Source of the DNA: Clarias gariepinus
Taxonomy: Eukaryota
DNA length: 64,000 bases
Assembly: GCF_024256425.1 (NCBI RefSeq)
Contig: NC_071110.1
Coordinates: forward strand, 2,599,451-2,663,450
Reading direction: 5' to 3'
Position 1 is the first letter of the stretch; every line of letters starts with the position of its first letter. Under the pieces are notes generated by a model. The model worked only from the letters and a program-made list of their open reading frames with translations. It did no database searches and was not told the origin of the DNA. Shown in pieces: positions 20,566 to 60,740 of this stretch. The translations under genes and the position numbers were made by a program.

Positions 20566-20577
20566 AGTTTCGTTTTC
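20566..20577 (-). promoter_or_regulatory. ISRE (GAAAACGAAACT on the gene strand) ~45 bp 5' of the locus-1 ATG. The shared motif GTGTGGCTTTAAAAA is at 20629-20643.
   Basis: Exact match to the ISRE consensus GAAANNGAAACT. Repeated at the paralogs (see separate features). Confidence 0.6.
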
Positions 20578-26300: not shown

Positions 26301-27745
26301 AGAGGCATTTATTTCAAAGCAGGCTTTTGATTTTGCAGAATAACAGAAAACATGAGATTAAATACTTTTATTTCTCCATATACTCCCCTGCTACACTAAT
26401 GCACTTATCCCAGCATTTTGCTAGCGCTTGATAGCATCAGGGTAGAAAGTTTTCTCAGTATGCTGGGGATATAATCGGACTGCCTGCTTTACATTTTAAA
26501 CGCTGGCCACCCAGAAACTCCTTTAATGGTGCAAATGTAGAAACGACTTAAAGTGAGGTCAGGACTGTATGGGGGATGTGCAAATGACTCCTGTAATGTT
26601 TAAGTGGTGTTGATAAATTATTGTGTGTACTGTTCCCACAGATGGATCTCTTTCGCAAGTTCATGACAAGTTATCCATTGATTTTCCAGGATTAGGCATT
26701 CCACTCGCTTGTTTACAGAAAACACCTACAGGGGGCTCGAAGCCACCTCAACAGGTATTGTTATTCATGGGAGTACGGCCATCTTTAATACATTTGCACC
26801 GTTCAAATGTTTTACTTTGCACAAGAGTCTCATTACGGTTCTGTGGTTGAAGTCTTCTTAAAATGTCAATCGCTTTTATGCCTCCATTCACCAAAAATTT
26901 TACACAAGTTCCAATTCCACATAAATACCTCTTTTATTATTATTATTTTTAATGATAATAATAATAATGTATTACAATTTGTGCACACAGCTCAAGGGGA
27001 AATGACTATGACATGTGTAATGTTTTCGACCCTTGTGAACAGGTGGCACCACAGACACGGACACAAGACGAGGTCTTACGGCGAAACGGGTAATTTTATA
27101 TAAAAAGAAAATGGGGAAGGAAAGGATTAAAGGAAAGCGGAAGGGAAAAAGGAAAGGGATGTGAAGGTGTGCACCTGCAGGTCCGGTGGCAGTGCCCAAC
27201 AGGCATGCGGGCACACAGCTGGCACAAGGCGGTGCTGGGCAAAGTGGCAGAGTGGAGCACTCGGAGGTAGCGCTCCAGCACAACTCATGATGATGACCTC
27301 TTCCGCTGACACGAGCCAAGACCGGCCTTTTCCTTTTGGCAGTGGGGATACGAAAGCAGGTTCTGTGCGGGAGGTGCCTCGGGAGCTCGAGCAGCTATTA
27401 TCCAATAGCCGTCCTCTCGCGGAGATCGAAGGGGAAAGCATTCTGGTCTTGCCTTAAAAGTTTCTGGGGCATGTAACATCGCTCCTCTCTAGTACCACTC
27501 TCTTATACTCCACCGTGTGACTTCTTACGGTGTTACCTGACTAAACTCCGCGCTTCGCTTTTGTACAATGGAGAAAGCTCGAGTCTATTGATGTTGATTA
27601 TCGCCAGCCGGCCGACCTAGCGGCCCCGTTCGCCCTCTTTGCGCACCTGCAGAAGGGGTGGCCATCTACGTAGGGAGACTATGGAGTGAGCAAGGAGCGA
27701 GAACAGGTTGAGCCCATCACAGGCACAAGCCTTGACACATCTTTA

Positions 27746-28274
27746 TTACAATACATTTGTGTCACATAACCTTACAGATGAGTTTTTAGCCATACAGAAC
27801 CCAGCGTACAGAGGCTGAGTGAATGTGGTGTGGACTCTGTGGAGGAGCCTCATTGTGTCACAGATACTGTAGAAGGACAGAGTTCCTGCGTTGTGATCCA
27901 CATACACTCCTATTCTAGAGGTCATTGGACCTTGGATATCGGTTTTGATTTTGTTGTGCCAGAAACAGACAAAGGAAGACGAACACAGCAGAGTCCAAGA
28001 CTGACTGTTGAATCCAAGCAAACACTCATGACCCGTTCCTTTCCTGCTGATCTCTTTATATGCAACTGATATGGATACAACCCCGCTCCACTCCACCTCC
28101 CAGTAACAGCGTCCACACACACTCTCCTTACACAACACCTGTTCCCAGTAGTTAAATCTCTCTGGTTGATCAGAGTATTGCTGGTGTGTTTCACTGCGTG
28201 TCACTGATCTGTTCTTCTCAGACAGAATGAGTTGATGATGTGCTGTGGTGGGATCCAGAGTCAGATAACAGAAA
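27746..28274 (-). CDS. finTRIM-like locus 2 B30.2 exon (ILDFCYLTLDPTTAHHQLILSEKNRSVT…VCGRCYWEVEWSGVVSISVAYKEISRKGTGHEC…GVYVDHNAGTLSFYSICDTMRLLHRVHTTFTQPLYAGF…*).
   Basis: B30.2 motifs; acceptor ttttag|ATTTCTG. 552-nt open frame. Confidence 0.75.
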
Positions 28275-28319
28275 TCTAAAATTAATAAAATGTCCACAGG
28301 TTAGATATTAATGGGATGT

Positions 28320-28470
28320 AGTAGCTCAGTGATGTTGGACTACTGATGCGAAGGGTTTAAGTTTAAATCACAGTAGCTGGGCCTGTAAACAAAGCCCCTT
28401 AGCTCTCAACTGATCAGGTGTCTGAATGATATAAATGTAAGTCATACTGGATAAGGGCATAATATCTGGT
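28320..28470 (+). mobile_element. tRNA-derived SINE (head GTAGCTCAGTGATG…, tail …ACTGGATAAGGGCATAATATCTGG). An identical copy is at 39590-39745.
   Basis: tRNA-like A/B-box head and the conserved fish SINE tail. Confidence 0.6.
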
Positions 28471-29081
28471 AAAAATGAATCAGATTTAGATGTAAAACAC
28501 AAACATGTTTAGACAAAGTGTTAGGGGGTGTTTTACTTACACTGCAGAAACTCCTCTCTGTTTTTTGGCTGTAATATCTGAAATGCTGCAACTGGGGAAA
28601 ATGATAGAGACAAAAATATGAAATTGAAACAGTTTAAAACCTTGTAAGCTCAGATGGACACATCAATTAGACGCCAACTTGGTGGATCAGTCTTCCAATT
28701 TTGAATTTAAGATATCACCTGCATTTCTATTTCAATTAAATGTAATATTTAGATTTATCATTTCTGTTGACTTTGTCTGGTAAATTTAGCTTGATGTAAT
28801 TTACAATGTTTATACTCTTAAAGACTGAGCAAAAATGGTTTGTGTGTTAAAACCCTACTGCTATAATTGGTTATTAAAAGTCACATGATGAGTTACATGA
28901 GCAAGTGGAGGAAGAGCCTGAAAAATGGAAGACATGTGTGATGTAATGTGCAAAATATTTAACAGCGAACAATTTTCATTTAAAGCCAGCCTGACATCTG
29001 AAGTATAATTGTTCATTTTTATTGGATGGATTTTATGGCGCTCTGTACTGTGATGCAGGACAGAAATGTTTGCTTCTTTAC

Positions 29082-29881: not shown

Positions 29882-31057
29882 CTGAGACCAAATAAATTAG
29901 ACTTAAATAAAATGTTTAATTAAAAAACAAACATATTTCCTTTAGGAGTAAAAAAAAATATATATATAAGGGGAATCCTGGCTGAGGTGGCTCTGAGCCC
30001 ACTGCAGTCGTTCCCTTAAACATTCATTGAGTGAAACGCCTAGGCCTTGAAGGCTGACAGATAACTTGTCGGTAACTTTAGGAAGAGAAACATCTGTTTG
30101 TGGAAACTATACACACAATCATTTACCAACACCACTTGCACAGTGCAGGAACTCTGCTAGGAGTTATTGCCATTTATTGTTATCCCCCCTACAGTCCTGA
30201 CCTCACGCCAGCCATTTTCACATGTTTGGGGACTTACAGGACTTCATAGAGGCCAGAATTTTAGATCTGAAGCAGATTATGACTCTGGCATACTGAGAAA
30301 TCTTTCTACCTTAATGGTATCCAAGTACTAGTGAAACACTGGGATAAGTGCATTAGTGTAGCAGGGGATTATATAGAGAGTTTTTATTGTCAGAACTGTG
30401 TCCTGTTATTCTGCACAATTAAAAGTCCTACTTTCGGGTTATTTGTTAGGTGCTAAACAATGTTTCCTAAACAAAATGAGCTTTATCATTACCAACAATC
30501 ATATCTTTAAAAATAATAATAACTTAAAAAGATACATACATGTATTTCAGACTGACCCGGCACTGAAATTTAATTCATTTTAGGATAAATATTCATTATG
30601 AAAAGTTGGGTAACCAGAGCTAGTCTGTGGTAAAAACAGTGTTTTGGTGTCCCTGTGCATCCAGTTAATGAGTAAAAACCGTACTGCATTTAAATATTTC
30701 AGCAATATTGACTGGGTTCAGATAAAGTTCTTACTTTTTACTTGTAAACCTTTAGCTTTATACAGAGCTATGAAATATCTGGTGTGTGTGTAAGCCCAAT
30801 TAACGGAAAAAAACCTGTTTCAAATGAAATAATTATTTAAACATTGACACTTTAACACCATCACGCAGCTTTAACATTGTGCACGGCTTTGTGCTCTGTT
30901 GTTTTGTTGTAAATTCAATCATAATGTTGTTGGGTGTTGATGTGTACAATGTGCTTGACCTTTTCGTAAAGAAGCACAGTAAATGCCAGTTATAACACCA
31001 ATTAAATTAACTCAACAGAAACTACGTTATCTATAGAATTATGTAGTCTTGTCTGAC

Positions 31058-31639
31058 CTGTTTTTCAGTCCTTTCCGCTTTAGTTGAAACAGTATCATGA
31101 CCTTTATGGTCGTCTATCGTACACAAGTAACAGATGAAGCTCTGGTCAGTACGACAGTAGATCTCAGTCAGTTTGTCATGCTGAGAGCAGATCTTCTCTT
31201 GAAGCTTTGCACAAGGTTCTATTAACTTGTGCTTTTTAAAAGCAGGAGACTGATAGTGAGGTTGAAGATGATCTTCACAATAGGAGGTCCTGCACACCAG
31301 ACAGGAATTGGCAGCTTTGCGTTTTCTTCCAGTGCAGGAATCACACTCCACATCTCCAGGTCCAGCGTAACAGTGAGCCCTAGAAGCAGCTTCGAGTTTA
31401 GACTTCTTCAGCTTTTCCACCACTTCAGCCAGCCTGCGTTGAACAGGTCTAGAAGTGAAAGTTTCTCTATGCTTGGGGCAGCTGTAGACTCTCCTTTGAT
31501 CCTTGCAATTCCCGAAGTAATTACTACACACCTTACCGAAATTGTGGCCACGGGGGGTAGTCACTGGATCCCTTAAAGGGTTCAGACACACTGCACAGCT
31601 GAACTGATCCTGATTTACTGAAATATTTGCCTTAGCCAT
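31058..31639 (-). CDS. finTRIM-like locus 2 RING + B-box exon with the same ligand substitutions as locus 1 ([61 protein letters not shown]…).
   Basis: PRGHNFG and CPKHR are shared with locus 1. An ISRE is at 31681-31692 and GTGTGGCTTTAAAAA at 31743-31758. Confidence 0.7.
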
Positions 31640-31680: not shown

Positions 31681-31692
31681 AGTTTCGTTTTC
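31681..31692 (-). promoter_or_regulatory. ISRE (GAAAACGAAACT) 5' of locus 2.
   Basis: Exact consensus match, ~45 bp upstream of the ATG at 31639. Confidence 0.6.
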
Positions 31693-33100: not shown

Positions 33101-33755
33101 ATCGCTCTCCCATGTGCGCTCCCCTGTCTTTGCCTGCCTTGCGCCACTTTCTTTGTGTGACTCGTCACACCTACCTGGTCTGCCTCACCAGGACTCTGAG
33201 GACTCTGCATTCACTGAGCTCTGACCTGTGGATGCACGCCATTCACATGGGCGCCACCAAAACCACTGTTCTGTCAAAACGTGTTATTCACCTAAGACTG
33301 TATAAATTTGAGCTCACTAAACACTGTGCTAAATAAAGACTGTTCATGCTTGTGGATTTTTTGTTCCAGTGTGTTCATCAGCTACCTAAGAATCATGAAT
33401 TATGTAACCACAATTACTGTATGTGTTCCAGATGAAACCACTTCAAAAGAACATGAAACCCTGCAGTTCAGTAGTGTACAGACCCAGGCTGCTTTGCTTC
33501 TTCTTGCTAATCATACTGTGTATGATCCTCATGATAGCAGTACATAATTCCTATTTCTTTATTGTGAAATACCAAATACTTCTTTTTAAATGTCAAAAGG
33601 TCTGCGCATGAATGCTGTGGAAAGACTTCCTATTTAGATAATCTTCTTCAAACACTCAATTACCCTGTGATGGGTAATTTTTAAGTGCCATATATGCAAC
33701 CAATTATACTTAGAAACCCTTAAAAACATCAAAGTAAATGAAGCAATGATTCATA

Positions 33756-35361
33756 CAGTGGTGTGAAAAATTATTTGCCCCTTCCTGATTTCCAATTCTT
33801 TTGCATGTTTGTCACACTTAAATGTTTCTGCTCATCAAAAACCGTTGACTATTAGTCAAAGATAACATAATTGAATACTAAATGAAGGTTTACGTTATTT
33901 AGGGAGAAAAAAAATCCAAACCTACATGGCCCTGTGTGAAAAAGTGATTGCCCCCCTTGTTAAAAAATAACTTAACTGTGGTTTATCACAGCTGAGTTCA
34001 ATTTCTGTAGTCGCCCCCAGGCCTGATTACTGCCACACCTGTTTCAATCAAGAAATCACTTAAATAGGAGCTACCTGACACAGAGAAGTAGACCAAAAGC
34101 ACCTCAAAAGCTAGACATCATGCCAAGATCCAAAGAAATTCAGGAACAAATGAGAACAAAAGTAATTGAGATCTATCAGTCTGGTAAAGGTTATAAAGCC
34201 ATTTCTAAAGCTTTGGGACTCCAGCGAACCACAGTGAGAGCCATTATCCACAAATGGCAAAAACATGGAACAGTGGTGAACCTTCCCAGGAGTGGCCGGC
34301 CGACCAAAATTACCCCAAGAGCGCAGAGACAACTCATCCGAGAGGCCACAAAAGACCCCAGGACAACATCTAAAGAACTGCAGGCCTCACTTGCCTCAAT
34401 TAAGGTCAGTGTTCACGACTCCATCATAAGAAAGAGACTGGGCAAAAACGGCCTGCATGGCAGATTTCCAAGGCGCAAACCACTTTTAAGCAAAAAGAAC
34501 ATTAAGGCTCGTCTCAATTTTGCTAAAAAAACATCTCAATGATTGCCAAGACTTTTGGGAAAATACCTTGTGGACCGACGAGACAAAAGTTGAACTTTTT
34601 GGAAGGTGCGTGTTCCGTTACATCTGGCGTAAAAGTAACACAGCATTTCAGAAAAAGAACATCATACCAACAGTAAAATATGGTGGTGGTAGTGTGATGG
34701 TCTGGGGTTGTTCTGCTGCTTCAGGACCTGGAAGGCTTGCTATGAGAGATGGAACCATGAATTCTACTGTCTACCAAAAAATCCTGAAGGAGAATGTCCG
34801 GCCATCTGTTCATCAACTCAAGCTGAAGCGATCTTGGGTGCTGCAGCAGGACAATGACCCAAAACACACCAGCAAATCCACCTCTGAATGGCTGAAGAAA
34901 AACAAAATGAAGACTTTGGAGTGGCCTAGTCAAAGTCCTGACCTGAATCCTATTGAGATGTTGTGGCATGACCTTAAAAAGGCGGTTCATGCTAGAAAAC
35001 CCTTAAATAAAGCTGAAGTACAACAATTCTGAAAAGATGAGTGGGCCAAAATTCCTCCAGAGCGCTGTAAAAGACTCGTTGTAAGTTATCGCAAACGCTT
35101 GATTGCAGTTATTGCTGCTAAGGGTGGCCCAACCAGTTATTAGGTTCAGGGGGCAATTACTTTTTTACACAGGGCCATGTAGGTGTGGATTTTTTTTCTC
35201 CCTAAATAATAAAAATCATCATTTAAAAACTGCATTTTGTGTTTACTTGTGTTATCTTTGACTAATAGTTAAATGTGTTTGATGATCAGAAACATTTTGT
35301 GTGACAAACATGCAAAAGAATAAGAAATCAGGAGGGGGGCAAATAGTTTTTCACACCACTG
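33756..35361 (+). mobile_element. Full-length Tc1-like DNA transposon, ~1.6 kb. It has ~28-bp TIRs (CAGTGGTGTGAAAAATTATTTGCCCC … GGGGGGCAAATAGTTTTTCACACCACTG) flanked by TA. The transposase is frameshifted.
   Basis: TIRs read directly at 33756-33783 and 35334-35361; a TA dinucleotide on each side. The transposase is split across ORFs 34120-34542 and 34520-35032. Confidence 0.85.
34120..35032 (+). pseudogene. Tc1 transposase broken into two overlapping ORFs by a frameshift near 34520-34542 (MPRSKEIQEQMRTKVIEIYQSGKGYKAISKALGLQRTTVRAIIHKW… / …LWTDETKVELFG…VKYGGGSVMVWGC…DNDPKHTSK…EWPSQSPDLNPIEMLWHDLKKAV…).
   Basis: Paired-like HTH plus a DD34E core, all Tc1 hallmarks; two reading frames. Confidence 0.8.
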
Positions 35362-36009
35362 TATATAATAAATCAATTATTGATTTTATACTGGTAGGGA
35401 ATGAGTGGAATCTGTGAAACCCTCGAGGCTTCAATGCAGGAGTTCATTGACAATTTTTTTTAAACTGGTGTCATAGTTAAGCTTCATAGTCAAGCTATTT
35501 TTGTGTCAAAAAAGAGAAAAGCAGAGTTACTCTTTACTCTGCACAGAAACTAAACTAAACCAAAAAAAAAAAAAAAAATGCACCCAAAAAATAGGTGAGA
35601 AGATGCAGAGAGTATGGTATGATATAGAGTAATTAGAGAAATATGCTCTTTCTGACATGCCAGAAGTCCATCCAATTCTTGTTTGGGTGATAAGTTCTGC
35701 ACTAGTTCACCACTCATGCTGTGCTTCATACTACAACTGAATAGGGTGGGCCAATTTTAAAATTATTTGGGGATTGTGATTCAGGTCTAAAGTTGAACCG
35801 AATCAGTCTTATGATACATATAAAACAGCCATTATTTTGTTTTGTTTTGTTACGTCTCTATCCTGTTTTCTCTTCTCCTCACATCTTTCTGTGATTTATT
35901 TGTTTATGTGAACTTACAATTTGTTAAGAAAAAATTATAATCAAATATGAAAACCTATTACGTCCTTTGGGATGTTCAATGCTGCAGAAACCTTTTGGTT
36001 CCGATCCTG

Positions 36010-38030: not shown

Positions 38031-39019
38031 AGAGGCGTTTATGTCAAAACAGGCTTTTAATTGTGCAGAATAACTAATGCACTTATTCCAGCATTTTGCT
38101 AGCGCTTGATAGCATCAGGGTAAAGGTTTCTCAGTATGCTGGGGATATAATCGGACTGCCTGCTTCACATTTTAAATGCTAGCCTTCCAAAAACACCTTT
38201 TATGGTGCAAACGTAGAAACGACTTAAAGTGAGGTCAGGACTGTATGGGGGATGTGCAAATGACTCCTGTAATGTTCAAGTGGTGTTGATAAATTATTGT
38301 GTGTACTGTTCCCACAGATAGATCTCTTCCGCAAGTTCATGACAAGTTATTCATCAATTTTCAAGGATCAGACATTCCACTCGCTGAATGTTTACAGAAA
38401 ACACCTACAGTGGGCTCGAAGCCACCTCAACAGGTATTGTTATTCATGGGAGTACGGCCATCTTTAATATATTTGCACCGTTCAAATGTTTTACTTTGCA
38501 CAAGAGTCACATTACGGTTCTGTGGTTGAAGTCTTCTTAAAATGTCAATGGCTTTTTTATGCCTCCATTCACCAAAAATTTCAACATAAGTTCTAATTGC
38601 TCGTAAATCCCCTTTTAATAATAATAATAATTATAATAATAATAATGTATTACAATTTGGGCACACAGCTCATGGGGAATTGGGGAAAACTTACGGGGAA
38701 AAGGGGGATGGAAAGGGTTAAAGGAAAGCAGAAGGGAAAAAGGAAAAGAAAGATGTAAAGGTGTGCACCTGCAGGTCCGGTGGCAGTTCCCAACAGGCAT
38801 GTAGGCACACAGCTGACAAAAGGCGGCACTGGGCAAAGTGTCAAAGTGATCTAAGGGCGGCATTCTGGTCCTACCTTTAAAGTTTCTGAGGTATGTAACA
38901 TAACATGTAACTAAACTCCGCGCTTCGCTTTTATAATACAGAGGGAGCCTACAGAGTGAGCAAGGAGCGATAACAGGTTAAGGCACACGTCCATTACAGG
39001 CACACGCCGTGACACATCT

Positions 39020-39552
39020 TTATTTCAATACATTTGTGTCACATAACCTTACAGATGAGTTTTTAGCCATACAGAACCCAGCGTATAGAGGCTGAGTGAA
39101 TGTGGTGTGGACTCTGTGGAGGAGCCTCATTGTGTCACAGATACTGTAGAAGGACAGAGTTCCTGCACCGTGATCCACATACACACCTATTCTAGAGGTC
39201 ATTGGACCTTGGATATCGGTTTTGATTTTGTTGTGCCAGAAACAGACAGAGGAAGACGAACACAGCAGAGTCCAAGACTGACTGTTGTATCCAAGCAAAC
39301 ACTCATGACCTGTTTCTTTCCTGCTGATCTCTTCATATGCAACTGATATGGATACAACCCCGCTCCACTCCACCTCCCAGTAACAGCGTCCACACACACT
39401 CTCCTTACACAACACCTGTTCCCAGTAGTTAAATCTCTCTGGTTGATCAGAGTATTGCTGGTGTGTCTCACTGCGTGTCACTGATCTGTTCTTCTCAGAC
39501 AGAATGAGTTGATGATGTGCTGTGGTGGGATCCAGAGTCAGATAACAGAAAT
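39020..39552 (-). CDS. finTRIM-like locus 3 B30.2 exon. It differs from the locus-2 exon by only a few codons.
   Basis: The 184-aa ORF differs from 27746-28297 at ~5 positions (e.g. AYEEISRKETGHEC, VDHGAGTL). Confidence 0.7.
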
Positions 39553-40849
39553 CTAAAATTAATAAAATGTCCACAGGTTAGATATTAATGGGATGTAGTA
39601 GCACAGTGATGTTGGACTACTGATGCGAAGGGTTTAAGTTTAAATCACAGTAGCTGGGCCTGTAAACAAAGCCTTTAGCTCTCAACTGATCAGGTGTCTG
39701 AATGATATAAATGTAAGTCATACTGGATAAGGGCATAATATCTGGTTAAAATGAATCAGATTTAGATGTAAAACACAAACACGTTTAGACAAAGTGTTAG
39801 GGGGTGTTTTACTTACACTGCAGAAACTCCTCTCTGTTTTTTGGCTGTAATATCTGAAATGCTGCAACTGGGGAAAATGATAGAGACAAAAATATGAAAT
39901 TGAAACAGTTTAAAACCTTGTAAGCTCAGATGGACACATCAATTAGACGCCAACTTGGTGGATCAGTCTTCCAATTTTGAATTTAAGATATCACCTGCAT
40001 TTCTATTTCAATTAAATGTAATATTTAGATTTATCATTTCTTTTGACTTTGTCTGGTAAATTTAGCTTGATGTAATTTACAATGTTTATACTCTTAAAGA
40101 CTGAGCAAAAATGGTTTGTGTTAAAACCTACAGTACTGCCATAATTGGTTAGTACACATCACATGATCTGCTACATGAGCAAGTGGAGGAAGAGCCTGAA
40201 AAATGGGAGACATGTGTAATGTAATGTGCAAAATATTTAACAGCGAACAATTTTCAGTTAAAGCCAGTCTGACATCTGAAGTATAATCCTTGAGGAACAA
40301 AAAATATTAGGAATTGATGATTAGGATTACCCTTCTGCTGTGGGAGGTCAGTAAAAAGTGGAGGCGATTATCCATGCTTCAGTCACCAAATATGACTGTT
40401 CAATTACTATAGATGGTTTTTAAAAAGCTTATACAGTGTACTTTAGCCACTGTAGTACTGTTACAAAAATAATAAGTTTAGCTGTTTGCAAGAAGGCCTT
40501 CAAAAAAGAAAAAGAGACGCTCCTGAGCAGCACAGTCTTGGTGCATTATGATACAGAGAAGCCACTAAAGTTGACATGTAATGCCCCCCCATATGAAGTA
40601 GGGACTGTCATATCCAAGAAGAAAAAGTCATGTCAATCCAATCAGTTCTGACAGAAGCTGAAAAAAATTCACAGATCAAAAAGAGGCATTGGCAATCATT
40701 TATTGGGTGAGAATATTCTTATAGTATTTTACTCTATAAGTTTACTCTTCACACATCACAAATCATAAACCATTACTGGCAATGCTAGGGCCAAAAGCAA
40801 CAGTTTCCCACATTAGCTGCTTTAAGGATGCAGGAGTTGCTTTAAGGGG

Positions 40850-42510: not shown

Positions 42511-42634
42511 CTTGTGAACAGATTTTGTTGAATTCCTCCTCACAGATTTCCTCGACCCGTTTTTTCAGATCTGAGAGAGATTTCCTCACTTCATCAAATG
42601 AGAGATGTTGATTGACAGTGAAGCTGGGTGAGTC
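42511..42634 (-). pseudogene. Copy-III internal ftr exon (…SDLKKRVEEICEEEFNKICSQ). It is intact in itself, but the locus downstream is degenerate. The paralogous coiled-coil exon 2 is deleted (homology breaks at ~42737). The coiled-coil exon at ~42850-42952 has lost its acceptor (ctcag|AATGAAC has become cgcatAATGAAC).
   Basis: Direct comparison with 18255-19058 and 29082-29881. Confidence 0.5.
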
Positions 42635-43295
42635 CTCACATCCAGGAGAAGCACAGAGAGACGGGAAACTCTACAGAGAGGAAACACATCATAGAGAAGG
42701 AGAAAAGTGTAGGAGGGGAACGAATGAATCTCAGACTTTATTATCTCATACTGTATAGGAACATTTAGTTGCATTTTGTTGTTGTTTTTATGTTGTTGTT
42801 TTTTAGTTTGTGCATGTGTTCAGGAGAATTTCTCTTTTTACTCCTTACCGAAATCATGTCAGCAATCTGTCTCAGCCACCTCTTCTGCTTCTCCTGGATC
42901 ATCTGCTGGAATTTAATTTGTTCTTCCTTTAGTTCATTATGCGAAAAAATAAATAAATCTCATTATTTCTCAGTATTAACTGCAGCTAAACATTTAAACT
43001 TGACATTTAAACTACAGTATGTATACTCAATGTTGATTGATGTTACTTTTTAAAGTAACTAACTACAATACATTACAAAATTACTGTCATTAAAAAGTAA
43101 CCAATTTTATAACAGCGTTATTTTCTGATAAAAGTAACTAGTTTGAGTACTTTTCCATTGCAGATAATAAAAACTTGTTTGTGATTCATGCATGTTGTTT
43201 TAGTCAAGATCTTAATAATTATTCTACCTTCATCTCTCAGCGAAGTTTGGCTTATAATCTGTAAACTTGTAATGCTCCTATCTCACTTACGCGGT

Positions 43296-43460
43296 GGCCT
43301 TAAGTAGGTTCATCATGATTCACTGCGAGTTTTGGCGCTGTGATTAGGTTTCCATTTTTCTGTGCGACTTCATGAAACGTCCGGCAGTCACTCGTGACGA
43401 CTCACAGTGACTAACACCGATTCTCACCGCAAGTCAAATCGCATAGGTGAGATAGGGGTA
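43296..43460. repeat. Inverted partial copy of the sequence flanking the 47.4-kb minisatellite (43296-43356 is the reverse complement of 47343-47400). It is followed by a TAGGTGAGATAGGGGTAT seed unit at ~43444.
   Basis: Read directly. The palindrome GTCACTCGTGACGACTCACAGTGAC lies at ~43388-43412. Confidence 0.55.
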
Positions 43461-45820
43461 TAACAGCAGGAATAACAGAGGGAGCGGGTTATCAGGGGCG
43501 GGGCTTGCAGGATGACTTTTACACACACACATTAACGGAATGACTGCTGTCTGGCTTACGGATTACATAAATTGTCTAAATAATGGATTACATTTTTGAA
43601 AATATAACTTAATAACTGAGTACTTAAATGGCGGACCTACAGTAACGCGTTAGATTACTTGCTACATATAAAAAAGTTTTCCAAGTACTCTAACGCTACT
43701 TTGTAACACGTTACACCCAACACTGAGTATAATGATGAAAATAGAACATTTAATTGCGAACTATACTAAAATCTTACTTAACTAAAATAAAACGATTTTA
43801 ACTTCTAAACTTCTACAAAATTACAATGCATTAAAAAAAGGAATATTGTGAATAAGTTTTGCATAATTTAATTCAGAAAGCGAAACTCATATTCTAGATT
43901 CATAACACATTACACGAATATTTCAAGCCTTTTTGGCTTTTATTTCGATGATTATAGCTTACAGCACATGAAAATTCCAGTATCTGAAAATATTAGAATT
44001 TTTTTTAATCTTTCAAAGACCTTCCAATGAATTTTAAAAGGTTTTACAAAACAGAAATGTCCAACTTCTAAAAAGAACAGGTGGTGGCACTGTCTGAGTC
44101 GTTGTTGAAGACCAGGTTGCTTTGATAACAGCCATCAGCACGTCAGTATCATTGAGTCGGGTGTTTCTCATCTTCCTCTTGACAGTAGCCTGTAGATCAT
44201 CTATTGGATTCAGGTCAGATGAGTTGGCTGGTCAATTAAGCACAGTAATATCATGGGCAGCAAACCAGTTATGGTTGTTTGGTTATCGTGGACAGGAGCT
44301 AAGTTCTGGTGAAAATAAAATCAGCATTTCAATGAATCTCATCAGCAGACAGAAACATGCAGTGCTCTAAAATGTTCTGACACTCCTGACGTTATCTCTG
44401 GTCCAGGAGTGGTTTGATGTTAGGAATGCAACAGTTGTAGCTCATTTCCTGAAGGAGTCTAGGCGGGTGGCTTTTGATGCACTGACTTCAGCCTTGCACC
44501 CCTCCTTGTGAAGCTCTTCCATGTTTTTGAATCAGGTTACAGTAGCTTGACAATCTTCTTAAGGTTGTGGTCATCACAGTTCATTTTGCAACTTTTTCTA
44601 CCACACTTTTGCCTTCCAGGTAACTTTGCATGAATATACTTCAATGCAGCCTTTTGTAAACAGCCAGCCATTTTAGTAATGACCTTCTGTGGCTTTGTCT
44701 CCCTATAGAGGGTGTCACTAATTATCTTCTACAACAGTCAAGTCAGTAGTCTTCCCTATGATTGTGGTTGCATATACTGAACCAGACTGAGAGATACATG
44801 GTATTTATTATATATGAATAGTATTTTACTCAACTCATGAGCTGTAAGCCATAATCATCAAGTAAGGCTTGAAATATTTTACTTCTTGTGTAATGAATTT
44901 AAAAAATATAAGTTTCACTTCATATAAAAAAATCCACAATATTCTAATTTGCTTCTATTAATTAATTTTTGCACTATACAACCATAAAGGGTAATGAGAG
45001 CCTTCCTAAAAACTTTTTAGGACTGTTGCCTGTCAAGTTTACTAAAAGAAACCAAACTAAACATGAAACAACTTCTATCCACATAATTCCATGCATTTTT
45101 ATACACGATAAGTAATGCATGTGCTACAGAAACTTTAAGCTAGTTTAGGAAAATCTACTGTCATGAAATATATCATAAATCCACCCACATTGTTGATTGT
45201 CTGAGATAATTAAATAATAAAAAAAGTAAGTTTCATAAACATACGTGTTTGTTAGAAAGACCATTCCTGAAGCCTACTGTAGTTATCCTTGGTTCTTATT
45301 TCTTGATTGGAGTAATCCAGCAGACTCAGTCCTAAACTTGGGTGTCATATGCTTTATACTCTTTATGTTATAATTGTAGGGTTAGGGTTAATGTTTATAT
45401 TGAGATATTTCAGCTAGACCAAGGCGAAGAGTCAATTTAACCACACAAACACCTCTTACGTCATTTAGTTAATGCCAATTTAAAAGTGTTTTGTGTGAAT
45501 GTTTTGTATTTATTGTTGTCTTATCTGTCTAGCACATAGTATATTGACCATAACAAATCCTTACAATGATTTTACAGAGAAAGTGTATTTACATTAATAT
45601 GCTAAATATATGCTTTCAAAGTTTGTATATATGGCTTTGATTTGAAAGTACAAAGTGTATTTTATTTAAGCCTTATAGAGTTTTAAGACTTTCTATAACA
45701 GGGAACTTTACTGTGCACTTTGTTTTATTCCTGTTAGTTAGAATACAATAGAATTTTATCAAAAACCCTTCTGCTTTACATCAATTTACAATAAACATTT
45801 AAAAATCTGAAATGATTTTC

Positions 45821-45851
<31 letters not shown>

Positions 45852-46365
45852 GCCTTGAGTACATATGTGTACTTATACTTTTCAGAGGCCCGATATGTTC
45901 TATGTACAATCCTTGTTTTATTGATTGCATCTAATATTCTAATTTTCTGAGATTGTGGATTTGGGGTTTAAGCCATAATCATCTCAATTATGACAAATCA
46001 TGGTTTGAACTATCTTGAGTCTATCTCATATATTAGTTTCACTTTTTAAGTTAATGTTATTAAATTAACTTTTTAAGTTAATATAATTAACGTTTGCACG
46101 ATATTCAAATTTTTCAAGTTCCACCTGTACAGTATAAGGCAAAATTAAATCAAGAGCCCTTACAATTGTGTTTAACTTAAACTTGACCCACTGATTGTTT
46201 TATTGAGCAAGAACATCTCTCACCCAGACACAACAGTGGTTTATTAATTATCAGTGATTCATAGAAGTTAGATTACAAATTATATATATATATTTTTTTT
46301 TTATATATTATTAAAAATATTTTACGTCAATGTACATGAAAAAATAACAACATTAAAGCTCTTAC

Positions 46366-46953
46366 CTGTTTTTCAGGTCTTTCTCCATTGGTATCTGTAT
46401 CATAGCATTTATGTTCATACATCTTGCACAAACAACAAATAAAATTTTGGTCAGTACAAGAACAAATCTTGATCAGTTTGTCATGCTGAGAGCAGATCTT
46501 CTCTTGGAGATCTGCACAGACTTCCACTGACTTGTTCTTCTTAAAGGCAGGAAACTGATAGTGAGGTTTAAGATGATCTTCACAATAGGAGGCCAGACAC
46601 ACCAGACAGGAATTAACAGCCTTATATTTTCTCCTGGTGCAGAAATCACACTCTACATCTCCAGGTCCAGTGTAACAGTGAGCAGGAGAAGCAGCTTGAG
46701 GTTCAGTCTCTTTTAGTTCCTTCACCTTTTTATTCAGCATGTTGTTCCTTCGTAAAACAGGCCTTGGAGTGAAAGTGTCTCTACACTGGGGGCAGCTGTA
46801 GACACCTTTCACATCCTCCTGATCCCAGAAGCCATAAATACACACCTTACAGAAACTGCGGCCACAGGGAAGAGTCACTGGATCGTTTAGGAGATTCAGA
46901 CACAACGAACACCTGAACAGATCCTGGGATTTTAAAATCTCAATCTTTGCCAT
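46366..46953 (-). CDS. finTRIM-like RING + B-box exon with a largely canonical RING ([65 protein letters not shown]…). Possibly the 5' exon for locus 3.
   Basis: The C3HC4 cysteines are present (His replaced by Arg in PCGRSFC). B-boxes present. Donor AAACAG|gtaaga. Confidence 0.6.
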
Positions 46954-47396
46954 TTTTGTAACTCACACACTGAGTGAGAGAGAGGAAGAGAGAGAGATGC
47001 ACTCAAGGTTTACATCTTCTAAAAAAAGAGAGCTTTTTGATCTTATAAATGTTATGACATGACACAAAGAGCAGGCGTGACTTTAAAAAAAATGGTTCAG
47101 GCTTTAACCCTTTTCCAGCTGGCTCAACCACAGAAAAGCTGACTATGACCGCTTTACTTATTCATCAAGTTGCTGAGCTAAAATGTTATTAGCAAGTAAA
47201 TAAAAATATAAAAAACATACATGTTTTTGATTTTCTACTCATTGCATAGTGAAGATATATTATCACATTTAGGCCCTAAATTTAATTTAAGTCTGAGTTT
47301 AAGTTGTTTTATTTCTACAGGCATGTAGAGAAAGTATTGTGAAGATGGAAACCTAATCACAGCGTCAAAACTCGCGGTAAATCATGATCAAAACCG

Positions 47397-48752
47397 AGTA
47401 GGTGAGATAGGGGTATTAGTAGGTGAGATGGGGTATTAGTAGGTGAGATGGGGTATTAGTAGGTAAGATAGGGGTATTAGTAGGTGAGAGAGGGGTATTA
47501 GTATGTGAGATGGGGGTATCAGTAGGTGAGATAGGGGTATCAGTATGTGAGATGGGGGTATCAGTAGATGAGATAGGGGTATTAGTAGGTAAGAGAGGGG
47601 TATTAGTAGGTAAGAGAGGGGTATTAGTAGGTGAGATAGGGGGATTAGTAGGTGAGATGGGGGATTAGTAGGTGAGATGGGGTATTAGTAGGTGAGATGG
47701 GGTATTAGTAGGTGAGATGGGGGTATTAGTAGGTGAGATAGGGTATTAGTAGGTGAGACAGGGGTATTAGTAGGTGAGATAGGGGTATTAGTAGGTGAGA
47801 TAGGGGTATTAGTAGGTGGGATGGTGGTATTAGTTGGTCAGATGGGGGTATTAGTAGGTGAGATGGGGTAATAGTAGGTGAGATGGGGGTATTAGTAGGT
47901 GAGATAGGGTATTAGTAGGTGAGACAGGGGTATTAGTAGGTGAGATGGGGGTATTAGTAGGTAAGATAGGGGTATGAGTAGGTGAGAGAGGGGTATTAGT
48001 ATGTGAGATGGGGGTATCAGTAGGTGAGATAGGGGTATCAGTATGTGAGATGGGGGTATCAGTAGATGAGATAGGGGTATTAGTAGGTAAGAGAGGGGTA
48101 TTAGTAGGTGAGATAGGGGGATTAGTAGGTGAGATGGGGTATTAGTAGGTGAGATGGGGTATTAGTAGGTGAGATGGGGGTATTAGTAGGTGAGATAGGG
48201 TATTAGTAGGTGAGACAGGGGTATTAGTAGGTGAGATAGGGGTATTAGTAGGTGAGATAGGGGTATTAGTAGGTGGGATGGTGGTATTAGTTGGTCAGAT
48301 GGGGGTATTAGTAGGTGAGATGGGGTAATAGTAGGTGAGATGGGGTAATAGTAGGTGAGATGGGGGTATTAGTAGGTGAGATAGGGGTATTAGTAGGTGA
48401 GATGGGGGTATTAGTAGGTAAGATAGGGGTATTAGTAGGTGAGAGAGGGGTATTAGTATGTGAGATGGGGGTATCAGTAGGTGAGATAGGGGTATCAGTA
48501 TGTGAGATGGGGGTATCAGTAGATGAGATAGGGGTATTAGTAGGTAAGAGAGGGGTATTAGTAGGTAAGAGAGGGGTATTAGTAGGTGAGATGGGGTATT
48601 AGTAGGTGAGATGGGGGTATTAGTAGGTGAGATGGGGTAATAGTAGGTGAGATGGGGGTATTAGTAGGTGAGATAGGGTATTAGTAGGTGAGACAGGGGT
48701 ATTAGTAGGTGAGATGGGGGTATTAGCAGGTGAGATAGGGGTATTAGTAGTT
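47397..48752. repeat. Minisatellite, ~65 copies of a 20-21-bp unit (GTAGGTGAGATGGGGTATTA, with GATAGGGG / GAGAGGGG / TATCAGTA variants). It has a higher-order period of ~475 bp, repeated about 3 times.
   Basis: Seen directly. The variant block …GAGAGGGGTATTAGTATGTGAGATGGGGGTATCAGTAGGTGAGATAGGGGTATCAGTATGTGAGATGGGGGTATCAGTAGATGAG… recurs at ~47490, ~47985 and ~48440. ORF 48360-48602 is an artefact. Confidence 0.9.
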
Positions 48753-50229
48753 AACAGATTATGGGCCAAACTTCACTGAGTGATGATGGTAGAATAATTA
48801 TAAAGGTCTTGACTAAAACAACATGCATGAGGAATGACAAAAGAGTTTTCATTTTCTGCAAAGGAAAAATACTCGAACTAGTTACTTGTATCAGAAAGTA
48901 ACGCTGTAATGTAACTGATTACTTTTTGAAGCCAGTAATTTTGTAATGTAATTAGTTACTTTAAGTAACACCCCTTAACACTGCTGGTGTTTCCACATTG
49001 CCCACAGTGTGTAAATGAGTGAATGAGTGTGATTGTGTACCCTGTGATATACCCTGGAATAGGCTTCGGCCCTCTTGTGACAGTAAAAGATAAGCAGTAT
49101 AGAGAATAAAAACAAATGACTGAGATACCTCTAAGTATATAAAAAGTAAACTGAAAGTATACTTACTTATTTTTAGTTTAAAAGAAGTGTACTATTAGTA
49201 CACTTAAACTTATTTTTGATAATAGATTGCCAAAGGAACATGTCACATGGAGAGAGCATTTTTGCAAGTGACACTACTTAAGGATAATAATAATAATCAC
49301 AAGAGCTTACCACACCTTTTAAATCTCATGGATTTGTACACAAACACATATTTGGCATAGCACAGCCTAAAGAGGGTTTGCAGTGACATAACCGGATGTT
49401 GCATTCCACCATATTAACATTCCAGCTACTGTATGTCTAGCTGCCAGGATCATTTTAATACAGTATACATACATACATTCATATAGATAAATACAGAATA
49501 AAAGAAATAAAAGAGATTTCATATCTTATTTTTTTCATTGACAATGGTTGACATTGAGTCAAATCTTATAATAAATTGATTTTGATGCCATCGGTGTCTT
49601 TTGGTTCTTTATCGACAATAAATGCACTTTTTTTTATTTTAGATCTGTGTGAGATTTCCTCACTCCATCGAATGCGAGATGGTGATTAAAAGTGAATATA
49701 GATGAATTCTTATATCTAGAGAAAATATTTCTGGTATGTTAGATAAGTTTATGAATCATGGGGCTTTGTGTTATAAATACCATTTTTTCATCTTCATATT
49801 GGCATCCTACAGCTAGACCCAAACCAAGATTCAAATTAAGTTGAATCTCTGTGGATTCTTGGAATCTCAATTCAATTCAATTGAAAAAATTTAATAATTG
49901 TCATTGTCGCAAAGCAGCTTAATGCAATCAAAATAATTATTTAAGTTTGTATGGAATGTGAATGTGTATGAATCAAAATGGTCAGATAGTCCCTGGTAAG
50001 CAAGCCGAGGGCGACAGTGACAAAGAAAAACTCCCTGAGATGGTAATAGGAAAAAACCTTGAGAGGAACCAGACTCAACAGGGAACCCATCCTCATCTGG
50101 GTGATAACAGATAGCAGGGATTGATCTGCAGTCATACTGTGTGTTAGTTGGCAGGCAGTTCAACATACCAGTTAATGTTAATTGATGTAAATATGGAGTC
50201 CAGGTAGTTATTGGAGGCTCAGGTAGACT

Positions 50230-53600: not shown

Positions 53601-54789
53601 AATTTATTTATTTAATTATGAGAATTCTCAAGGCTCAAAGCATTCCAATAAAGGTTTTTTATTTGAACCATATATCTAAAGCCTCATACAGTAGGCAAGC
53701 AATTCTTTTTGTCAAAAAAGAGTAAAGCAGAGCTACTCTTACTCACAAAGCAAACAAATTATGAATATTGACATAAAAAATGGTTAAAAAGATGCTGGGA
53801 GTATGGTTTGAGGTATGTGCTCTTTCTCACATGCCAGTAGTACATCCACTCATCCAGCAGCCAAAATGCTGGGTGTTTGGGTGATTAGTTATGCACTAGG
53901 ACCCTGTTCATGCTGTGCTTCATGCTACTGTACAACTGAATGGGCTGAAATTTAGGCTGATTTTAAAAATATTTGGGTAATGGTGATTCAGGACTAAAAT
54001 TGAGCTGAAGATGCTAGAGAGACCAAAAGGTCAGTGGAACTGGAGTTTAGAAACTGAAAACCCAGATCTTCAAGTAACTACCACTGAGCTTTTACCAAAC
54101 CTGCTTTCTGAAATCTATTAAAAACAGTAGCAGTATGGGGATACAGAAGCGCCAGACAAGATTCTAATAATAATAGTAACAAACATAATCATAAACAAAA
54201 CTACAATGCCAAACAAAAGGAAGAAAACACACTGGGTTAATTGGGTGTACAGCGCCCTCCAGGGGACAGTCCTGGCACTTGTAATGTAAGTTCCAGTTTG
54301 TACGAGAGCAACTTCAAATTCAAATTTTATTTGTCACATACACAGTCATACACAGTACGAAATGTAGTGAAATGCTTACACGACCGATACTTACTTCTTA
54401 CCATCTTACATACTTACATACTTCTTATCAATATCTATCTAAACATATTGCCATTGTTCACTAACATTAATGTACAGCCATCTGTATATCTTACACTATA
54501 CTTACTTTACATTTAACCACTTAGAGAATTTTTCACTTTTATCAAAAGAGAGTAAATGAGTATGAAATATGAAACTATGCTATTGATTTTTTTTAAACAT
54601 GTCTTTAAAGCTCAAGTTTAAGACAAAATATATAGATAGCAGAGTTGTTTCATTTCAGTGAGCTACTTTTTAAAATAAAGAGACTTACTTGAAGACTTAT
54701 TAGGGAAAAAAATATCATTGTACTCCACAGTTGTATGTGTTTTACACTCACTCACCTTCTATACCCCGACTTATAACGCAGGTATACAC

Positions 54790-55020
54790 ATTCACACACT
54801 ACGGGCAATTTGGGAACGTCAATTAACCTAACTTTGGACTGGGGACTGTGGGAGGAAACCGGAGTACCTGGAGGGAACCCACCAAGCAGAACATGCAAAC
54901 AGATGGTATGTGCATGTGCCCTGCGATTCCTGAGAGACTCCAAGTCCCCGCGACCTTCGATCCTGGCCGGGAATCGAACCCGGACCCTGGAGGTGCAAGG
55001 TGCAAGGTAGCATGGTGGTG
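54790..55020 (-). mobile_element. DANA-like SINE fragment, reverse orientation.
   Basis: Contains the reverse complement of …GGTTCGAGCC…GAGTTTGCATGTTCTCCC…-like segments (ACATGCAAAC…GGGAATCGAACCCGGACC). Confidence 0.55.
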
Positions 55021-55967: not shown

Positions 55968-56491
55968 TTATTTTGGATCACATAACCTCATGGTTGAGTT
56001 ATACCATACCCTGAACCCAGCGTACAGAGGCTGAGTAAATGTGGTGTGAACTGTGTGGAGGAGCCTCATCGTGTCAGAGACATTGTAGAAGGACAGAGTT
56101 CCTGCATTGTGATCCACATACACTCCTATTCTTGTAGAAGCTGGTCCTTGGACCTCAGTCTTTACATTGTTGTGCCAAAAAGAGACAGAAGAAGAAGAAC
56201 AACGCAGACTCCAGGACTGACTGTTATAGCCAAACCCACACTTATTACCTCCACCTTTCCTGCAGATCTCTTTATATGAGACTGATATGGAGACACAAAC
56301 GCTCCACTCCACTTCCCAGTAACAGCGTCCACACACACTCTCCTTACACAACACCTGAGTTCTGGAGTCAAATCTCTCTTGGTGACGTGTGTATCGCTGT
56401 TTTGTCAAAATATGTTTTACTGCTCTGTTCTCCTCAGACAGAAGGAGTTGACAATGTGCTGTGTTGGGATCCAAAGTCAAATAACAGAAAT
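55968..56491 (-). CDS. finTRIM-like locus 4 B30.2 exon (…DFCYLTLDPNTAHCQLLLSEENRAVKHILTKQRYTRHQERFDSRTQVLCKESVCGRCYWEVEWSVCVSISVSYKEICRKGGGNKCGFGYNSQSWSLRC…GVYVDHNAGTLSFYNVSDTMRLLHTVHTTFTQPLYAGF…*).
   Basis: B30.2 motifs; acceptor ttttag|ATTTCTG. Confidence 0.75.
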
Positions 56492-56639
56492 CTAAAACGA
56501 TAAAATGTCCATAGGTTAGATGGTAATCCACAGTTTATCTCATGACATTATTATCTATCAAGAGAGCAATTAAACAGTTAGTTGTCATAGTTGATGCTTT
56601 AAAACAGTAAAAATAGACAATAGTCAGAATCTGAACAAC

Positions 56640-60589: not shown

Positions 60590-60740
60590 CTTTTCAGGTG
60601 GCATGATGGCATAGTGGTTAGCACTGTCACCTTGCACCTTCAGGTTCTGGGTTTGATTCTGGCCTCAGGTCTGTGTGCGTAGAGTTTGCATGTTCTCCCA
60701 ATGCTGGGTGGGTTTTCTCCCTTTTAAAGAGGCAGGGTTT
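60590..60740 (+). mobile_element. DANA-like SINE fragment (…GGTTCTGGGTTTGATTCTGGCCTCAGG…GAGTTTGCATGTTCTCCCAATGCTGGGTGGGTTTTCTCCC…).
   Basis: Matches the conserved DANA core segments. Confidence 0.6.

Follow-up and report, generated by a model that had tools for sequence, protein, structure and literature searches.

What is the minisatellite that lies beside the first exon of a finTRIM-like gene, and how is it related to the inverted blocks of similar sequence found on both sides of this exon? In the initial annotation, these blocks were read as the ends, and the minisatellite as the internal satellite, of a large composite element enclosing the exon. Part of this reading has stood: the blocks are mobile-element ends, the minisatellite is internal to such an element, and inverted relatives are present on both sides. 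The single large element has not. Analysis of the window (the whole 64-kb stretch of DNA) indicates that the two related sequences, termed here copy A and copy B, were inserted separately, in the ordinary way, on either side of an exon of a host immune gene, and that the minisatellite is a 21-base transposon piece amplified about 65-fold inside one broken transposon copy. We hold with good confidence the account as a whole, that is, two separate short non-autonomous cut-and-paste copies, most likely hAT-like, with the 21-nt segment amplified within copy B.

Copy A is located in intron 1 of the gene, with the predicted acceptor of exon 2 about 100 bp away, and comprises the following features:

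43028-43725, plus strand: copy A, a complete non-autonomous DNA transposon (most likely hAT-like) of 698 bp, recognised by its terminal inverted repeats (TIRs), a three-terminus alignment and motif density
43020-43027: candidate left target-site duplication (TSD), TGTATACT
43028-43046: left TIR, CAATGTTGATTGATGTTAC
43270-43293, minus strand: single minisatellite unit, colinear with the array of copy B
43388-43412: imperfect palindrome GTCACTCGTGACGACTCACAGTGAC in the central region of copy A, absent from copy B
43440-43465, plus strand: second unit, in the same orientation as the array
43710-43725: right TIR, the reverse complement of CAGTGTTGGGTGTAAC
43726-43733: candidate right TSD, AGTATAAT

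The element spans about 0.7 kb and is devoid of ORFs. Read as an 8-bp direct repeat, its quasi-palindromic flanks, TGTATACT and AGTATAAT, agree at 6/8 positions, for which the chance of at least 6/8 is estimated at about 1%, and the same flank bases can also be read as a 6-nt extension of the TIR. Both ends are crowded with GTAAC/GTTAC motifs, at about 20 times the background density, whereas the 414-bp centre of the copy contains none. At 43028-43145 and at 48860-48983 the motif reaches 34-40 per kb, and no other 120-nt windows in the 64 kb score as high; 43560-43725 has 18 per kb, as compared with 1.75 per kb window-wide. The richness in this motif that had been pointed out for 43040-43140, 43560-43700 and 48860-48960 is borne out.

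Within copy A, the units at 43270-43293 and 43440-43465 form the left and right arms of a 26-nt internal inverted repeat (81% identity) spanning 146 nt. A seed unit had been placed at about 43444, and indeed the 18-mer at 43444-43461 is identical to eight array units; the colinear seed, however, is the inverted unit at 43270-43293. The palindrome described beside the seed is likewise present, in imperfect form, and appears as a hairpin in the predicted centroid DNA fold.

Copy B lies on the other side of the exon, in inverted orientation with respect to copy A and with the ATG of the gene about 390 bp downstream. It lacks the right 367 bp of copy A and retains the left 331 bp:

47342-48983, minus strand: copy B
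47342-47396, minus strand: inner part, homologous to 43309-43358 of copy A, where the homology to copy A ends (truncation point)
47397-48750, minus strand: minisatellite of 1.36 kb, whose units (about 65, each 20-21 nt long) fall into 18 sequence variants
48751-48983, minus strand: outer part including the terminus, homologous to 43028-43267 of copy A

The outer part aligns at 82% identity (43028-43286 against the reverse complement of 48983-48730, with 243-262 nt aligned). The inner part does so at 90% over 50 nt (43309-43358 against the reverse complement of 47391-47342), in agreement with the earlier remark that the 5′ flank of the minisatellite recurs inverted at 43296-43356. The homology between both copies ends exactly at 48983 and 43028, and the terminus of copy B (48965-48983) is the reverse complement of CAGTGTTAAGGGGTGTTAC. 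Indeed, the left end of copy A, its right end and the outer end of copy B (the latter two as reverse complements) all begin their homology at CA(A/G)TGTT, the flanks being otherwise unrelated. A common boundary in differing contexts is what classically identifies the terminus of a mobile element, and it also speaks against a segmental duplication. On this sequence evidence, copies A and B would both have been inserted by cut-and-paste transposition. No further copies of the family were detected in the rest of the 64-kb window. The crowding of two copies into 6 kb, with the other 58 kb free of them, is not obviously due to chance, and the linkage of the two may reflect local re-insertion.

The same comparison locates the array within the element. 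Its monomer shares homology with a segment inside the transposon: the first array unit of copy B pairs with 43270-43295 of copy A, and this alignment continues on both sides into both flanks of copy B. Because both array flanks are colinear with the unexpanded copy A, the array stands exactly where copy A has one unit, the number of monomers at this position being 1 in copy A and about 65 in copy B.

Judging from its termini and subterminal motifs, the family is most likely hAT-like. The TIRs of hAT transposons follow a YARNG pattern, and the three termini CAATGTTGATTGATGTTAC, CAGTGTTGGGTGTAAC and CAGTGTTAAGGGGTGTTAC are short TIRs that fit it. Subterminal repeat clusters of the hAT type are present at both ends in the form of GTAAC/GTTAC, as putative transposase-binding sites. 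Teleost non-autonomous hAT elements (Tol2-like, hAT-N) share with this family the short CAG/CAA-TG TIRs, dense subterminal motifs in both orientations, a candidate 8-bp duplication, a length of about 0.7 kb and the lack of an ORF; on the other hand, the duplication is here only 6/8 and ambiguous with TA, and no transposase partner was identified. Pattern scans of viral, metagenome and prokaryote collections returned nothing, or one chance match.

The same two copies could instead be MITEs of the Tc1/mariner type, in which the target duplication would be TA and the TIRs would begin TACTCAGTGTTG, a reading that we find doubtful but not far-fetched. CAGTG-type termini also occur in Tc1-like elements. 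Moreover, the inverted repeat of copy A can be extended to TATACTCAATGTTG / CAACACTGAGTATA (93%), leaving TA on each side, and if the TIR is taken to start TACTCAGTG, its flanks agree with a TA duplication. Against this reading, the direct 8-bp repeat is equally good at 6/8. In addition, copy B ends in CACTG/CTGG, its terminus being followed by CTGG and not by AGTA TA, so that the homology between both copies ends at CAGTG, and the short TIRs come with subterminal motifs that are dispersed and face both ways, and not with long IR/DR arms.

The array itself has a two-level structure. Tandem Repeats Finder (TRF) describes 47397-48750 as a repeat of period 21 with 65.2 copies and 90% matches, and splitting it into units yields 47 that measure 21 nt and 16 that measure 20 nt, with the consensus AGTAGGTGAGATAGGGGTATT. 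Hence, the earlier description as a 20-mer repeated about 65 times is right in its copy number, the predominant length being 21 nt and 20 nt a minor length class. A second TRF row gives a period of 457 repeated 3.0 times at 94%, and the string of unit variants recurs along the array as (L/Q)IDJDKE(E)M(P)BBAFGCCNOH..., which divides it into three blocks:

47458-47955: higher-order block 1, 498 nt
47956-48412: higher-order block 2, 457 nt
48413-48752: higher-order block 3, 340 nt, incomplete

The higher-order unit of about 475 bp in the initial annotation corresponds to the mean of 498 and 457. Blocks 1 and 2 differ by 4 mismatches and one two-unit indel, with 452 matches. Monomers one block apart are more alike than neighbouring ones, mean monomer identity being 0.895 overall, 0.903 at lag 1, 0.948 at lag 22 and 0.963 at lag 46. 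At aligned positions, the higher-order copies are 97.6-99% identical, as against 89.5% for monomers and 82% for copies A and B.

These features suggest that the array would have grown in two phases within copy B. In the first, units would have been added one by one and diverged, probably through replication slippage between short direct repeats, since the unit begins with AGTAG and AGTAG also follows the last unit. In the second, more recent phase, blocks of 22-24 units may have been duplicated by unequal exchange or large slippage, which would give the 457-498-bp higher-order period. Near-identical blocks of 22-24 units are read here as the signature of block-wise unequal exchange. As in other higher-order-repeat minisatellites and satellites, monomers that are themselves diverged (89.5%) are organized in blocks of much higher identity; what differs is that there are only about three blocks, at one euchromatic locus, inside a transposon remnant.

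As for the direction of the change, expansion in copy B and collapse in copy A may each fit the two copies. The array could have been an ancestral variable trait of the family, as in miDNA4 and DTC84, with copy A as a collapsed one-unit member. Among the members of known tandem-repeat MITEs, the number of monomers does range from one to many (PMC12628747; PMC3879986), and copy A carries the unit twice, in its 26-nt internal inverted repeat. The higher-order copies are, however, far younger than the 18% divergence between copies A and B, which implies that, once inserted, the array gained at least most of its present length on the spot, and we regard the ancestral array as unlikely.

Growth of the array within copy B would be an event of a known kind, a tandem-repeat expansion within a MITE-like element. 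This route has been described in Xenopus for Xstir and miDNA4 (review: PMC12628747) and for DTC84 in the clam Donax trunculus (PMC3879986). In miDNA4 (Scalvenzi and Pollet), Xstir (Hikosaka and Kawahara) and DTC84, as here, an internal segment is single in some copies and arrayed in others, the monomer has short direct repeats at its borders, and a long-array copy that has lost one terminus fits the proposed path from MITE to satellite (PMC12628747; PMC3879986). Unlike those cases, the monomer of copy B is 21 nt long (a minisatellite) instead of the 100-200 nt of satellite monomers, the comparison comprises two copies only, and the superfamily is probably hAT and not Tc1/mariner.

Could copies A and B instead derive from a local inverted segmental duplication or rearrangement in the finTRIM cluster? 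The copies are close and inverted, and the 97% identity between 39000-40287 and 27723-29009 points to another recent duplication or gene conversion in the cluster. Nevertheless, a segmental copy should carry its flanks, whereas the homology stops at the element terminus and the adjoining host sequence is dissimilar, which makes this origin very improbable.

The sequence enclosed by both copies belongs to the host:

46366-46953, minus strand: exon 1 (RING and B-box) of finTRIM-like gene 3, identified by ORF, Pfam and protein identity

The position and strand of this RING exon, already noted in the initial annotation, were confirmed by its intact reading frame and by the Pfam domain zf-C3HC4_4 (E 1.5e-11). 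Residues 1-197 of its product are 60-70% identical to catfish TRIM25-like/finTRIM proteins, and the exon shares 75-80% nucleotide identity with the RING exons of three paralogs in the window. The rest of the gene falls outside the bracket formed by both copies: exon 2 at about 42842-42929, the exons encoding the coiled coil, and the exon for B30.2 at 39020-39574, with the same exon order and strand as in the three tandem paralogs. Exon 1 is, in short, host sequence and not cargo. None of the three paralogs in the window carries copy A or copy B at the corresponding position, and both copies are likewise absent from finTRIM and transposase loci of Hemibagrus (two species), Tachysurus, Pangasianodon and Silurus that total about 140 kb; the finTRIM loci covered there, which came from four other catfish genomes, have neither flank.

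It might be asked whether the array serves as a functional cis-regulatory or structural VNTR module for the adjacent downstream finTRIM gene. The exon-1 reading frame of this gene is intact, its ATG lies about 440 bp downstream of the array, the array is strongly G-rich on the plus strand (GC skew 0.65-0.77), and the proximal ISRE-like motif of gene 3 is degenerate, unlike those of the three paralogs. Against this, the array shows no sign of conservation, the paralogs manage without one, it is absent from all of them and from the other catfish loci, and the GGGG runs are spaced 16-17 nt apart, with no canonical G-quadruplex spacing in the array. No evidence of a function of the array or of the pair of copies for the gene was seen in this analysis, and the module is in our opinion highly improbable. 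We give equally little credence to a non-accidental linkage, either through a hypervariable promoter-proximal VNTR tuning an antiviral TRIM or through the pair promoting flipping or hairpin formation of the promoter and exon 1. If either were true, a transposon would be a new source of regulatory variation for a fast-evolving immune cluster.

Finally, the geometry needed for one transposon of about 6 kb, carrying the RING exon and the satellite and moving as a unit, is present, with termini at 43028 and 48983 of the same kind, outward-facing and inverted, in the sole family members of the window. This composite can nonetheless be set aside as scarcely tenable: the outer flanks, TGTATACT (43020-43027) and CTGGTGTT (48984-48991), agree at 2/8 positions, hence no composite target-site duplication, while copy A's own flanks agree at 6/8; copy A is complete by itself and copy B has no inner terminus; the copies share no more than 82% identity; the exon between them is the first of a gene whose remaining exons lie outside in the paralog order; and neither flank accompanies the three paralog RING exons in the window or several finTRIM RING exons in four loci of other catfish, L002, L003, L006 and L007 (a limited sample). 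Composite transposons, and macrotransposition by paired ends of the Ac/Ds type, likewise involve inverted copies of one element around host DNA; here, by contrast, there is no common TSD, one copy is truncated, the copies have diverged by 18% and the enclosed DNA remains in its ancestral context. The separate insertions of copies A and B are thus the reading retained.

Two further transposon sequences are found in the window:

43878-44920, minus strand: degenerate Tc1-like remnant, an independent insertion between copy A and exon 1, recognised by inverted arms, tblastn and Pfam
63520-63700: end of a different transposon, with TACTTGAGTA twice and GTAAC/GTTAC three times

The latter had been listed as a recurrence of the motif-rich blocks. 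Both motifs are there, but the stretch has no blastn or nhmmer similarity to copies A and B and belongs to another family. The arms of the Tc1-like remnant (43878-43971 and 44835-44920) are 72% identical over 99 nt, and the remnant matches Tc1 transposases by tblastn (E 4.5e-4) and DDE_3 in Pfam (E 2.7e-4, under the curated cut-off). Together with copy A, it lies in intron 1 of gene 3, which measures 3.4 kb as compared with roughly 0.9-1.2 kb in genes 1 and 2.

The two related, inverted sequences that bracket the RING exon of gene 3, a finTRIM-like gene, very probably stem from two insertions, on either side of a host exon, of one non-autonomous and probably hAT-like transposon, with an internal 21-mer of the truncated copy having expanded into a higher-order minisatellite. 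Comparison of the segment 42980-43780 with the whole window by blastn yielded only two non-self matches, both inverted: 43028-43286 with 48983-48730 (82% over 262 nt), and 43270-43358 with 47418-47342, within which 43309-43358 matches 47391-47342 at 90%. Given that both matches are inverted, the opposite strand from 48983 down to 47342 (copy B) is colinear with the forward strand from 43028 up to 43358, the left part of the complete 698-bp copy A (43028-43725). The 5' flank of the minisatellite thus recurs in inverted orientation, as the initial annotation had reported. The whole 1.36-kb array of B stands at the place of a single unit of A (43270-43293; GTAAGTGAGATAGGAGCATTA when reverse-complemented). 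Nothing in B corresponds to 43359-43725 of A, B being truncated within the central region of A.

A second unit, in array orientation, is located in A at 43440-43465 and corresponds to the seed unit that had been recognized near ~43444. Together with 43268-43293 it forms a 26-nt internal inverted repeat (81%) around 146 nt, and this loop holds the palindrome of the initial annotation, which is present at 43388-43412 but imperfect. As for A being a strong foldback element along its whole length, this was discarded, as its predicted DNA fold is only mildly more stable than that of shuffled sequences (z -2.2). A contains no ORF, and neither Rfam, at its gathering threshold, nor ARAGORN detected a structured RNA or a tRNA-derived SINE at 43-49 kb. 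A scan for bacterial promoters and terminators returned nothing, its models being bacterial and irrelevant to vertebrate DNA.

Copies that lie in different contexts and end at the same base are the standard criterion for a transposon boundary. When the left end of A was aligned with the reverse-complemented right end of A and outer end of B, similarity was found to begin in all three at the same CA(A/G)TGTT...GGTGT(T/A)AC, outside which the sequences are unrelated; such a shared end in different contexts speaks against segmental duplication. The 8 bp on either side of A (TGTATACT and AGTATAAT) match at six positions, and a match of at least 6/8 is estimated to occur by chance with a probability of ~1% at this base composition. 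The blocks at A and B that had been described as rich in GTAAC/GTTAC are indeed enriched and coincide with the element ends: motif densities at the three ends are 34, 18 and 40 per kb versus 1.75 per kb window-wide, the motif is absent from the 414-bp centre of A, and the left end of A and the outer end of B are the top-scoring 120-nt windows in all 64 kb. We take the short YARNG-type terminal inverted repeats (TIRs), the subterminal motifs, which are dense and occur in either orientation, and the candidate duplication of 8 bp as signs of a hAT-like non-autonomous element, and a hAT-like affiliation of the family appears reasonably likely. The caveat to this assignment is a Tc1/mariner type, with a TA duplication and a TIR starting TACTCAGTG: the flank of A is quasi-palindromic, so that the same bases can also be read as TA plus a longer TIR, but the end of B (CACTG-CTGG) is unsuited to the TA reading.

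The exon between the two transposon copies is part of a tandem cluster of four finTRIM/TRIM25-like genes that occupies 16887-62792 on the minus strand.

Exons of the four finTRIM/TRIM25-like genes
Gene 1: RING/B-box exon 19916-20542; B30.2 exon 16887-17276; minus strand
Gene 2: RING/B-box exon 31031-31639; B30.2 exon 27746-28297; minus strand
Gene 3: RING/B-box exon 46327-46953; B30.2 exon 39020-39574; minus strand
Gene 4: RING/B-box exon 62118-62792; B30.2 exon 55968-56531; minus strand

In gene 3, Pfam identifies a RING domain in the product of 46366-46953 and PRY/SPRY in that of 39020-39574, and tblastn with catfish proteins places residues 1-197 at 46953-46366 and further exons near 42667-42521 and 39553-39428. 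Exon 2 is marked by a paralog-conserved segment (42842-42954), and our own reading of the sequence puts its acceptor near 42929; A therefore lies within intron 1, ~100 bp from exon 2, and B lies ~390 bp upstream of the ATG. This intron measures 3.4 kb in gene 3 versus roughly 0.9-1.2 kb in genes 1 and 2, and it also holds a degenerate Tc1-like remnant (43878-44920) with inverted arms of ~95 nt. An ISRE-like GAAAGCGAAAC at 43876-43886 accompanies this remnant. The best matches to the finTRIM exons in protein searches are all siluriform (71-78% identity), and at the nucleotide level the exons and adjacent segments are 80-91% identical to bagrid, pangasiid and silurid loci; both comparisons place the source species among the catfishes. 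An exact search with the ORF of exon 1 gave no match, and the highest protein identities were 76-78%, with none of at least 90% in the collection searched. The RING exon is in its ancestral place in a host gene, the remainder of which lies outside the bracket.

The initial annotation had regarded A and B as the two ends of one large composite element enclosing the ftr RING exon, and their outward-facing termini are in fact of the same type and inverted. Nevertheless, the outer flanks of such an element (43020-43027, TGTATACT; 48984-48991, CTGGTGTT) agree at only 2/8 positions versus 6/8 for the flanks of A itself, an inner terminus is missing from B, divergence between A and B amounts to 18%, the enclosed exon belongs to a host gene with other exons outside the bracket, and neither A nor B is present at equivalent sites in the three paralogs within the window. 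The composite element is not supported. At the introns and promoters of these paralogs, no precise empty site for A or B was found, the introns having diverged too far for alignments to extend past the exons.

Neither blastn (word size 7) nor nhmmer with a single-sequence query detected a further copy of A or B in the window, and the same tools found neither the family nor the array in ~140 kb of other catfish DNA, taken from the neighbourhood of finTRIM and Tc1 genes in Hemibagrus wyckioides, H. guttatus, Tachysurus ichikawai, Pangasianodon hypophthalmus and Silurus meridionalis. Scans for exact occurrences of conserved 19-28-mers gave no match in viral or metagenome contigs and a single 19-mer match in prokaryote genomes, in Paenibacillus, which we read as chance, by our estimate for 19 nt in 596 Gb. 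The block at 63520-63700, which had been grouped with A and B, does carry similar short motifs (TACTTGAGTA twice, GTAAC/GTTAC three times), but it shows no alignable similarity to them by blastn or nhmmer and was rejected as a further family copy; it is the end of another DNA transposon unrelated to A and B. Its TACTTGAGTA subterminal motifs are Tol2-like, and no partner end was seen in the rest of the window, up to 64000.

Both the minisatellite and its higher-order period were confirmed. TRF reports it as the sole large array of the region (47397-48750, period 21, 65.2 copies, 90% matches), with a second row of period 457 (3.0 copies, 94%). Cutting the array at every AGT(A/T)... start gave 47 units of 21 nt and 16 of 20 nt, so that the tandem repeat of the initial annotation stands but its 20-mer is the minor length class. 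The units comprise 18 sequence variants which, written as letters, recur blockwise as (L/Q) I D J D K E (E) M (P) B B A F G C C N O H ....; three lead-in units precede the blocks.

Higher-order blocks of the array
Block 1: 47458-47955, 498 nt, 24 units
Block 2: 47956-48412, 457 nt, 22 units
Block 3: 48413-48752, 340 nt, cut off

The higher-order unit previously given as ~475 bp is accordingly a true periodicity, but its length is the mean of 498 and 457. Block 1 differs from block 2 by four mismatches and one two-unit indel, and from block 3 by eight mismatches and six gap positions (329 matches). Mean monomer identity is 89.5% overall, 94.8% at lag 22 and 96.3% at lag 46. The plus strand of the array is strongly G-rich, with a GC skew of 0.65-0.77.

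At the colinear position there is one unit in A versus ~65 in B, with transposon sequence on both sides of the array; the blocks are young (97.6-99% identical) and the monomer diversity is old (89.5%). The initial duplication of the unit would have arisen by replication slippage between short direct repeats. Every array unit starts with AGTAG and the last one is followed by AGTAGTTAACAG; in A, the only repeat with this spacing is a weaker (G)TAAG...(A)CAAG. Thereafter the array would have grown and mutated unit by unit and, lastly, undergone two recent block duplications via unequal exchange. Growth of the array took place at one arm of the 26-nt internal inverted repeat of A, and the truncation point of B falls inside the inter-arm loop; we speculate that a hairpin-prone site favoured both array growth and truncation. 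Local re-insertion is known for cut-and-paste elements, and the nearness of the only two copies in the window may reflect it.

The event is of a known kind and of low general interest. In the Xenopus MITEs Xstir and miDNA4, microhomology flanks the monomer that expanded into tandem repeats, and long-array copies have lost their termini (PMC12628747); DTC84 of clam is another such case (PMC3879986). The route proposed here for B, from internal monomer to array, is one already known for MITEs. B offers a clear case, on a small scale, of a minisatellite that arose from a single transposon-internal unit, with an unexpanded sister copy 4 kb away and recent higher-order amplification still visible. 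Transposon-derived arrays of this sort are known mostly from Xenopus, bivalves and insects, to which a fish, probably hAT, case is now added. The main consequence is for annotation: ~2.3 kb of a seemingly exotic composite amount to two small-transposon insertions plus a locus-specific minisatellite, and A, B and the array should be masked as repeats rather than treated as gene-associated architecture. If length-polymorphic, the array would be a convenient marker beside a finTRIM immune-gene cluster.

Other mobile elements are present in the window. A nearly full-length Tc1-like transposon (33755-35367) has a transposase interrupted by a single frameshift (ORFs 34120-34542 and 34520-35032). Its nucleotide identity to Hemibagrus guttatus copies is 87%, and its protein is up to 94-95% identical to that of copies found in Xenopus, Polypterus and other fishes; the family is thus very widely shared. 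The segment 61847-61900 on the plus strand matches the Rfam UnaL2 LINE 3' element (59.5 bits; gathering score, 55); it is a LINE or SINE tail that closely follows the gene 4 RING exon in the orientation of the gene. A 247-aa ORF at 11328-12071 (minus strand) looks, from its translation, like the integrase or transposase core of a further element. Finally, a ~125-nt repeat at 60596-60720 and 54786-54900 is 73-77% identical to several places in the Tachysurus and Hemibagrus loci, and probably represents a SINE or MITE shared among catfishes.

Within the cluster, the RING exons of genes 1 and 2 have lost three zinc ligands (PRGHNFGKVCS...CPKHRE vs PCGHNFCKKC...CPQCRE) and exon 1 of gene 4 diverges at its 3' end; these three genes are therefore likely pseudogenes or RING-dead copies. 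Exon 1 of gene 3 looks intact. An ISRE-like GAAAACGAAAC precedes the start codon or RING exon of genes 1, 2 and 4 by a few tens of bases, and likewise occurs in an extra promoter fragment at ~22055.

ISRE-like GAAAACGAAAC sites
20567-20577, minus strand
22055-22065, minus strand
31682-31692, minus strand
62807-62817, minus strand

The pattern GAAANNGAAAS has eight matches in the window versus 1.8 expected, and gene 3 has only a degenerate version of the motif (GAAGATGTAAAC, 46990-47020). Genes 3 and 2 are 97% identical at their 3' ends, comprising the B30.2 exon and downstream sequence (39000-40287 and 27723-29009; 1.29 kb), versus only ~75% in their RING exons, which suggests recent gene conversion or partial duplication. 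Stray finTRIM pieces also lie between the full genes: 49631-49723 is similar to an internal exon at 42560-42650 and 18302-18395, and 21850-22124 is a copy of the RING-exon 5' region with its promoter.
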